Source: Saccostrea echinata (Eukaryota). Taken from it: a stretch of DNA of 64,000 nucleotides. The position numbers and the translations under genes were made by a program. Shown here in pieces: positions 20,901-21,712 of this stretch. Numbering within the stretch: position 1 is the stretch's first letter; the number at the start of each line of letters is the position of its first letter. The notes below the pieces were generated by a model. It was given only the letters and a program-made list of their open reading frames with translations. It ran no database searches and had not been told where the DNA came from. Location of the stretch: positions 32,612,001 through 32,676,000 of the forward strand of contig NW_026889803.1 of the NCBI RefSeq assembly GCF_033153115.1. Reading direction: 5' to 3'.

Positions 20901-21376
20901 CCTATTCTTGCATTGAGATCACCGGAAATAATAACAATACCCTGGTCTTTATATTTATATATCGATTCTTCTAAGCAATAATACAGATCTAATTCGTCTA
21001 ACCTGTTATTATAAAAAGTACTATTTTCCGGGGGAATGTAACAAAAGGCAAATAAAAATGGTATATCGCCGGTAGTTAGTTTTACCCAAATAATGCTGTC
21101 ATGAATATTTTCTAATACCGACACTACATTTTTTAAGTGATATTTGTACAAAATAACTATACCACCACCTAAACCAACAGATCTGGGGAAAACATATTTA
21201 CAAAACCCAGGTAAATCAGGAATATGTTCATCATTTATCCAACATTCACACAAGAAAACAATATCATGGTTTTTAATGATTGATAGGAAAGAGTCGTCGC
21301 TCAGTTTATCCAACAAGCCTTTCCCAATGTTCCAGGAGATTATTGAAACATTAGACAGTTCACTCTCGGCGCCCCC
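17966..21376 (-). CDS. LINE ORF2: APE endonuclease + reverse transcriptase + C-terminal Zn-knuckle (~1136 aa)
   Basis: Frame is open from 21376: IISWN, FLCECW, GDLNAR, IDY, SDH (APE); NYRGITL, FIDYRKAFD, QGEVLSP, YADD, YLG (RT); CKMC..EDEFHFILQC. No internal stops. Confidence 0.95.
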   Translation of the reverse strand, partial: GGAESELSNVSIISWNIGKGLLDKLSDDSFLSIIKNHDIVFLCECWINDEHIPDLPGFCKYVFPRSVGLGGGIVILYKYHLKNVVSVLENIHDSIIWVKLTTGDIPFLFAFCYIPPENSTFYNNRLDELDLYYCLEESIYKYKDQGIVIISGDLNARIGVRDDFIQNDVLTKEMGNLLSTFDYECDDNFVCRNNMDTQVNTFGRKLESLCKSSGMRIVNGRHKGDIQGNFTFYNHNGCSLIDYVLIHYQYFDKVVDFNSGTFTHLSDHCPITFVLNSNFTRHGSHEYNYVQCSRSYSTSVKWNAQNVNYVINDLDENIGKLSEIANKNLESQGDVDVSVNEFCNVVNNIVLPRCNVKYSSYQKAMNGQKCNKEDKPWFNENCRKLYLEYKSALRDFNFCKTVENHRMLVYKKHLYKKYEYRLKRQYKRYEGNMLDFLKKYNPKQFFRYFSKCKTKNSASDITLDQFFDHFKNLNNYENDINTSNGNVESDVNDAIFEELEVEISENEIIKAIGKLKRNKSCGEDLILNELLIECKNSLLPIITKLFNSIFNSGFFPSEWSKGCIIPVFKKGDRNDANNYRGITLISCLGKLFTSILNARLLEWDSLNNVITDAQFGFKPGNSTVDAIFVLQTLVNKFLQKKGGRLYCCFIDYRKAFDLIDRAKMWCKLVKQGITGKMFNIIKSLYASVKSCVKFNGMLSEYFENNVGLLQGEVLSPLLFSLYVNDCEMHFLENNCPYVELQLISIFLLMYADDMVLIADSPMSLQTLLNELSTYNKKWGLEVNTDKTKILVFRNGKSLRNEEKWVYNGKELEIVDRFSYLGMCFNYNGKFNITQKHVAEQGRKAFYALNKKFCNFDFNVETQISLFEMYVCSILNYGAEVWGFHKAPDVEKIQSLFCKKLLRLKKSACNNLVYFELGRMPMRESRKLKIIKYFLKLKGTQNILLKSCLEERVRNNDSWIRDIQNELHKLGLGYIFDADFNDNTYMLVKQRFLEVNNHTMISNICSNARSPLYQHLVDNFGIQYYLRKPINYMYKIQIARIRLSAHNLNVETGRYVNEIRKNRLCKMCSLNVIEDEFHFILQCPFYHDLRSKYLKKYYYKKSSVWKLIQLLSVQNIKELCNLGKYLYQASTRRMKHL

Positions 21377-21712
21377 CTATCTGGCTTGATTGTCATTGAC
21401 TGCCACACTTGAATTGACGCGATCACTCTCACCTGTACCCTGAGCACTTAACTGTACTTCGTAATCCATGAAATCTTCTCCACCGTCACACGGGTTGTAA
21501 AGCTCACCGTTTACTATGAGTTTGTCACGTACAAGTTTTACACGATTGCCCTCCTCTCGTAATCTTTTTACTTCAGGTAGAAGTTGTTTTCTACGATCTT
21601 CTATTTTAGCTGGAAATTGCTCCCGTATCCCGTATGGTTTATTTTTCAGCATGTAGCCTCGGTCCTTTACCATATCCCGTTCTTTGTTATAAAGAAATCG
21701 TGCCACAATCGT
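21377..21712 (-). CDS. LINE ORF1 C-terminal portion (L1-ORF1p/Transposase_22-like RRM-CTD), 5'-truncated
   Basis: IVARFLYNKER..YGIREQFPAKIEDRRKQL..LVRDKLIVNGELY; ends in a TAG in frame with ORF2. Confidence 0.8.
   Translation of the reverse strand, partial: TIVARFLYNKERDMVKDRGYMLKNKPYGIREQFPAKIEDRRKQLLPEVKRLREEGNRVKLVRDKLIVNGELYNPCDGGEDFMDYEVQLSAQGTGESDRVNSSVAVNDNQAR

Follow-up and report, generated by a model that had tools for sequence, protein, structure and literature searches.

An in-frame UAG-G junction and a candidate long-range readthrough signal in an RTE-X-like LINE of Saccostrea echinata

A 5′-truncated LINE copy with two ORFs in one frame

The window, a stretch of 64,000 nucleotides of Saccostrea echinata DNA, carries on its minus strand a copy of an RTE-X-like LINE that extends from a 5′ truncation at 21711 to a 3′ end at 17789. 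ORF2 (17966..21376, minus strand) has 1,136 codons, ends with TAA at 17968-17966 and encodes an APE endonuclease (Pfam PF03372, E 7.6e-12, residues 13-248), a reverse transcriptase (RT; PF00078, E 6.7e-36, residues 571-822) and a Cys/His-rich C terminus; the closest solved protein is human L1 ORF2p (E 2e-29). No protease domain was detected in the element with Pfam. The 3′ UTR (17789..17965, minus strand) contains AATAAA at 17808-17803 and terminates in (GAACTT)2 GA. Furthermore, in one contig of public run X4, one of four runs (X1-X4) that are RNA by our guess and represent at most two samples and at most two studies, a 22-nt poly(A) tail starts at 17789, which suggests that the element is transcribed. 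The element thus shows the hallmarks of APE-type non-LTR retrotransposons, namely APE and RT domains, a poly(A) signal, a short 3′ tandem repeat and dispersed 5′-truncated copies.

Upstream of ORF2, homology to longer copies identified a remnant of the 3′ part of ORF1 (21380..21711, minus strand; about 111 of about 372 codons), which lies in a frame open from stop to stop for 111 codons (21712-21377). The match with the longer C9 copy begins at 21711, so the 5′ part, comprising the 5′ UTR together with about 260 of the roughly 372 ORF1 codons, is missing here. The rest of ORF1 is present in longer copies on contigs C9, C14 and C48, in which ORF1 has about 372 codons and the whole element measures about 4.9 kb. 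An earlier note on this DNA had described the LINE as otherwise intact, a description that the truncation contradicts; given its absent 5′ end, the window copy probably does not act as a source element, and no copy with both ORFs intact was found among those seen in its own genome (G000). For the 373-codon C9 frame, no Pfam family scored above cut-off, and the only matches were weak and coiled-coil-like. Degenerate 21-bp tandem repeats lie upstream (21784..22900, both strands) and downstream (17145-17791, both strands) of the LINE; because the repeat is the same on both flanks, the element was evidently inserted into it. By eye, no clean target-site duplication was found. Elsewhere in the window, the minus strand holds a 402-codon open frame at 25963-27171, which we take to resemble a fragment of a hAT-type transposase.

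ORF1 and ORF2 share one frame, interrupted by a UAG at 21377..21379 (minus strand) that is a candidate readthrough codon. The minus strand reads CAA GCC AGA TAG GGG GGC GCC GAG AGT GAA CTG TCT AAT GTT TCA ATA ATC TCC TGG AAC across the junction, and the stop context is GGGGGCGC. We recovered the same codons on which the earlier note had based its claim of two ORFs in frame across a single UAG, and place the TAG at 21379-21377. A 9-nt spacer, GGGGGCGCC (21368..21376, minus strand), follows and opens with a conserved G at +1. The first in-frame ATG of ORF2 is codon 174 (20857-20855), downstream of the GDLN motif (20923-20912), in agreement with the previous estimate of about 170 codons, and an in-frame CUG occurs at codon 7 in the window family.

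We use the label RTE-X-like because two published bivalve RTE-X entries, S.grandis_24 and S.grandis_37, show the same junction by eye: the first 400 letters of each include a TAG-G that shares its frame with the APE WN motif (PMC10294476). S.grandis_24 (LINE/RTE-X) is also similar by eye at the end of ORF1, and the element length of about 4.9 kb agrees with the mean of 4,937 bp given for RTE-X (PMC10294476). This by-eye likeness to two entries and the length suggest that the element may belong near RTE-X (RTEX). The main text of that paper does not mention readthrough, and its four passages on stop codons do not discuss the junction.

Conservation of the junction within and beyond the genome

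Searching the own genome at the DNA level gave 8 matches, including 5 close copies that span the junction, and 4 of these 5 have the in-frame TAG. The fifth copy, on contig C48, is decayed (its ORF2 is open for 114 codons) and lacks 2 nt of the G run behind the TAG, and AAG stands at the junction in L007, a relative that is both distant and decayed. Protein searches of the same genome scored 150 candidates each, part of which were examined, and 32 APE clusters resolved into at least 27 families; a further 11 stretches without an APE start were left out of the scoring. Five of the 27 families have another type of ORF1 and an AUG ahead of APE. TAG-G was in frame in 20 of 22 two-ORF families, whose APE domains are about 21-45% identical to that of the window, and in these 20 families the spacers measure 36-144 nt, every one a multiple of 3. 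FAM26, seen in a single copy, has TAT at its likely junction and an open reading frame there, and FAM8 is decayed, its junction not being scored as TAG-G. Among the distinct junction sequences of the own genome, 56 of 60 have TAG, the others being one TGG, one TTG, one TAT and one deletion.

The survey bears on the idea that the TAG arose in a single-ORF element as a private nonsense mutation or through an assembly slip, or that a G lost from the G6 run hides an ORF2 start at the out-of-frame ATG at 21396. The shorter G run of the C48 copy does bring this ATG into frame, but that copy is the decayed one; the copies mostly keep TAG and not a sense codon, the TAG persists in 4/5 copies and 20/22 families, and an ATG is found in the preceding 30 nt at only 18 of 53 junctions. 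The family survey refutes this reading, to which we assign a negligible probability. Retention of the TAG in the family, which the earlier note had proposed as a check, was thus borne out at the level of copies, families and junction sequences.

We also surveyed 160 outside loci from MAG and metagenome collections, of which 63 have an APE start and 58 were scorable. An in-frame upstream ORF of at least 100 codons was found in 33 of the 58; the junction is TAG in 32 of these 33 and TAG-G in 28. Most of the remaining 25 loci start ORF2 at an AUG of its own or are distant. Judging by their content, most outside loci are host DNA on short contigs binned with symbionts. Individual loci depart from the common arrangement. 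L184 and L275 have TGA at the junction; L184 and L246 (TAG-G) are in frame and interrupted by contig ends. L217 (at 5010) has a 440-codon ORF1 that ends in TAG-G, 8 nt ahead of the APE tryptophan and out of frame, possibly through an assembly error or as a frameshift-type junction. L194 (326-4786) is a single ORF of 1,487 codons with TTC at the junction and no indel relative to its close relative L195, which has an in-frame TAG-T (one contig each). Since L194 is naturally open, an ORF1-ORF2 fusion appears compatible with an open element.

When the 20 families and the 33 outside loci were pooled, TAG was found at 52 of 53 junctions and TAG-G at 48 of 53. As a UAG followed by an in-frame ORF, with G at +1 in 48/53, the junction corresponds to what characterizes type III readthrough signals. 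The terminal stops of ORF2 in the same elements were 22 TAA, 7 TGA and 6 TAG among 35, with a following G in 6, and the frequency of G at codon position 1 across ORF2 is 0.25. The in-frame TAG-G is far beyond chance, and because the ORF2 terminal stops are mostly TAA, TAG being used in only 6/35, TAG-G at the junction is selected. The codon after the UAG varies (Asp 17, Gly 15, Glu 10, Val 6), and 7 elements have just 5 codons from the stop to the WN tryptophan. An in-frame AUG ahead of the first APE strand, which the earlier note had named as evidence against its proposal, occurs at only 5 of 53 junctions (12.2 expected). A near-cognate start is present at 17 of 53 junctions, including the CUG at codon 7 of the window family, and 35 of 53 spacers have neither AUG nor CUG, GUG, UUG or ACG before the first APE strand.

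These counts weigh on the main rival among the alternatives to readthrough, in which ribosomes terminate at the UAG and reinitiate at an adjacent non-AUG codon, perhaps held by the helix described below, as in SART1, L1 or caliciviruses, to make a separate ORF2 protein. Termination-reinitiation that tolerates changes of the start codon has been described, and a downstream structure is required in SART1 (PMC5972666). The window family, moreover, offers its CUG. However, reinitiation requires neither UAG in preference to UAA or UGA nor a fixed +1 G beside a free first codon, and 35 of the spacers hold no AUG or common near-cognate codon at all. The AUG-type relatives that we inspected, in which the ORF1 stop lies tens to hundreds of nucleotides upstream and is mixed in kind and frame, relax both frame and stop, and L194 is a natural ORF1-ORF2 fusion. 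We therefore consider reinitiation improbable. The +1 G and the fixed frame could likewise follow from the YAG|G consensus if TAG|G were a 3′ splice acceptor and ORF2 were translated from spliced RNA. Yet CAG is found at 0 of 53 junctions, the upstream pyrimidine fraction is 0.44 and reaches 0.7 in 0 of 53, and no joint appeared in the 4 public runs compared with the longer C9 copy, so that splicing is hardly credible here. Contigs bridging the junction in all 4 runs, X1-X4, read TAG with no variant and no joint, contigs being a form of data that loses rare variants.

The quick RT tree comprised 75 of 83 rows (8 omitted) and was midpoint-rooted, with no reference clades. In-frame junctions were found in all main branches and AUG types in nested groups. 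Junction type changed 10 times on the tree compared with 22.4 times after shuffling; the direction of change is not given by such a tree. One subgroup nested among in-frame elements (L078, L080, L082, L083 and L089 of G000, with L187 and L257; SH-aLRT 99) has a different ORF1, a gap between the ORFs and an AUG-started ORF2, possibly through a switch of translation mode together with replacement of ORF1.

Local structure and long-range complementarity behind the stop

The earlier note had proposed a hairpin shortly after the stop as the stimulator of readthrough. A local 9-bp hairpin (one G-U pair) is indeed present at 21326..21352 (minus strand), +25..+51 from the stop, but its folding is no better than chance: the fold z of the 100 nt after the window stop was -0.75, and 41 of 200 shuffles were as good. 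Across the 20 families the mean fold z was 0.07 (60 nt), -0.09 (100 nt) and 0.12 (150 nt), no conserved local stem-loop was found in these families, and the unpaired profile was flat over the 53 junctions. The signal for local partners was weak (Wilcoxon p 0.33, permutation p 0.026), and the folding method is blind to pseudoknots. With no folding excess and no conservation, we reject a conserved local hairpin as the stimulator. What is conserved is the sequence: +1 is G in 20 families, +2 a purine in 19 and +10 G in 19, and +10..+14 is purine-rich in 20 families despite their differing spacer lengths, within a conserved stretch at about +9..+17. The hairpin proposed earlier thus found no support in the comparison; the proposal of UAG readthrough into an ORF1-ORF2 fusion keeps the conserved UAG and the scarcity of AUGs on its side and loses the local hairpin.

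A discovery scan of the arm +8..+20 against the whole element was performed in 15 families, 5 being omitted for missing or doubtful 3′ ends. In 9 of the 15 (1.3 expected), the best partner was no more than 150 nt away from the ORF2 stop, any p value for this set being post hoc. In the window family, the predicted 5′ arm GAGAGUGA (+10..+17; 21360..21367, minus strand) finds its best partner in the 3′ UTR (-13.6 kcal/mol). The predicted 3′ arm, UCACUCUC (17879..17886, minus strand), lies 82 nt into the 3′ UTR and is kept in 4/4 copies with a 3′ end. The two arms are complementary over 8 bp and 3.49 kb apart; the centroid structure from local folding leaves the 5′ arm unpaired, and the 3′ arm has an unpaired probability of 0.81-0.96 in the fold of the UTR. 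Different sequences make up the corresponding predicted pairs in family F4 (CGGGAGUAG/CUACUCCCG), family F6 (GGAGAAUG/CAUUCUCC) and element L167 (AGGGGAAGGU/AUCUUCCCC). Overall, the predicted helices have 8-12 bp and the partner lies at -137..+126 from the ORF2 stop.

Arm, zone and test were then fixed before outside loci were retrieved, and 20 outside elements, the majority from one or two host-contaminated MAGs, served as the held-out set. Pairing with the element's own 3′ zone averaged -13.2 kcal/mol compared with -10.6 kcal/mol for the zones of other elements (permutation p 4e-5, n=20); p was 3e-4 after removal of 5 close relatives (n=15) and 3e-3 after removal of the GFW subclade (n=14), all of these values being optimistic because related elements share history. 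The 3′ zone was the best zone in 8 of 20 elements (1.7 expected), another zone being better in 12 of 20. The signal was confined to arms within +5..+20, with a peak at +7..+18, and, among 11 zones, to the one at the ORF2 stop. Null results were obtained with four other arms, the ten remaining ORF2 zones, an ORF1 zone and a direct-repeat control. An upstream control arm at about -14..-5, one of 22 arms tried, gave p 0.013, and a control of 5 AUG-type elements gave p 0.08. The antisense strand also scored (p 5e-5; -11.7 compared with -12.9 for sense), as expected with Watson-Crick pairs, so the indication for the sense strand is weak. Both arms code for protein in the GFW subclade, where their complementarity could reflect protein motifs. 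L196, L200, L204, L205, L208 and L213 have 5 codons from TAG to the APE tryptophan and a coding arm, GGGUUUUGG; in the four of these six with a 3′ end, its predicted partner, CCAAAACC, sits at exactly -51 relative to the ORF2 stop.

It is unlikely, in our view, that readthrough relies on the UAG-G context or local stems alone and that the 5′-3′ complementarity instead serves RNP assembly, cis preference or presentation of the 3′ end to the RT. Families F2, F3 and F11 do have TAG-G with local stems and no good 3′ partner. LINE RTs recognise the 3′-terminal region of their RNA, and that is where the partner is located. Against such a role, the arm is fixed at +7..+18 although spacer lengths vary, which is the offset of known readthrough stimulators with their 8-nt spacer (PMC3542737, PMC5382211).

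The pairing data also bear on A-to-I editing, which would convert UAG to UIG (Trp) in some transcripts, as at the amber/W site of hepatitis delta. UAG is a preferred ADAR triplet, editing would account for the strict UAG, and TGG does occur at 1 of the 60 genomic junctions. However, edited RNA would be copied back as TGG, and this single case stands beside one TTG, one TAT and one deletion. The pairing signal stops short of the UAG (arms across the stop, p 0.10-0.76), and the bridging contigs read TAG in 4/4 runs, although contigs drop rare variants. Editing is thus very improbable.

Proposed readthrough mechanism and related systems

Comparative sequence evidence makes readthrough of the UAG-G as such likely. 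Our main reading, that UAG-G readthrough in this RTE-X-like family is stimulated by the predicted long-range helix, has a probability of roughly 0.6. Under this model most ribosomes would terminate at the UAG and leave ORF1p in excess, and a minority would insert an amino acid and yield an ORF1-APE-RT fusion of about 1,510 aa with the junction peptide NQAR-x-GGAESELSNVSIISWNIGK, where x is Gln, Tyr, Lys or Trp. The +7..+18 arm would pair with the element's 3′ end in the cell, and the predicted helix would sit at the mRNA entry channel of the ribosome paused at the UAG and favour a near-cognate tRNA over release factor. RT would then be produced efficiently only from RNAs with an intact 3′ end, and elongating ribosomes would melt the helix and so limit output. 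Since no protease domain was detected, the fusion would not process itself. The broadest version, a widespread animal LINE clade in which amber readthrough is gated by a 3.5-kb bridge to the element's own 3′ end, so that only full-length RNA yields the enzyme, delivered in cis and fused to ORF1p, has in our estimation about an even chance.

UAG-G followed by a structure about 8 nt downstream defines type III readthrough; the structure is a local pseudoknot in gammaretroviruses, and Tombusviridae use long-distance pairing with the 3′ end (PMC3542737, PMC5382211). The closest parallel is p36/p95 of the tombusvirus CIRV, in which a UAG-G precedes the polymerase and a stop-proximal element (PRTE) is complementary to a 3′ element (DRTE) about 3.5 kb away, an arrangement proposed to cull truncated RNAs and to favour replication in cis (PMC3234231). 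In CIRV, however, the PRTE lies in a large stem-loop and mutants prove its function (PMC3234231), whereas the LINEs have no conserved stem-loop in 20 families, an arm that begins 7-10 nt past the stop, and evidence of a comparative kind. Gammaretroviral gag-pol shares the UAG-G, the 8-9-nt spacer before the helix start (predicted in the LINE) and, under our model, the combination of structural protein in excess with a fused RT. Its stimulator is a compact local pseudoknot (PMC3542737); in the LINEs, a folding method blind to pseudoknots showed no conserved local structure, and no protease was detected.

Among LINEs, ORF2 translation is known for few elements, such as L1 and SART1, and has been called an open question (PMC3894237). 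Mammalian L1 and silkworm SART1 resemble the present element in having a bicistronic RNA with low ORF2 output, and in SART1 a structure 3′ of the stop is employed; each of the two restarts translation at an AUG or close to one, across a 63-nt spacer in L1 and at UAAUG in SART1 (PMC5972666, PMC3894237). Unlike these, the window family has no AUG by the stop (the first is codon 174) and a fixed frame. Readthrough has been proposed from sequence for the non-LTR Group 3 of Paramecium, a ciliate clade for which the accessible parts of the paper describe no UAG-G context or stimulator (PMC5405496). In the literature covered, with Repbase reports and subscription papers outside its scope, we found no report of UAG-G or long-range readthrough in LINEs and no paper joining RTE-X with readthrough. 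Within that scope, UAG-G readthrough and a long-range helix would be new for LINEs, and LINE readthrough itself had already been proposed.

If the model is correct, it would provide a clade-wide mechanism of ORF2 translation with an exact 8-bp helix as test case, would add retrotransposons to the plant viruses as users of long-range readthrough signals, and would suggest how the dose of ORF2 is set, how cis preference arises and how truncated RNA is rejected, the active enzyme being predicted to be the ORF1-ORF2 fusion. AUG-based annotation strips the endonuclease from ORF2s of this kind. In addition, a reporter with the local context only could give a misleading false negative, as a dual-luciferase context did for CIRV (PMC3234231).

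Several further observations were made in the outside collections. GTDB species-representative MAGs (Sedimenticola sp., Ca. Thiodiazotropha, a Sulfurimonas endosymbiont and others; L154-L233) hold dozens of animal-type LINE contigs, likely through host contamination, and one such ORF2 (P0005) is annotated as a bacterial RT. Among viral contigs, scanning yielded 12 distant RT matches. Finally, L167 has a 308-codon cysteine-rich open spacer between TAG-G and APE, possibly an extra domain, where its relatives have 40-74 codons.
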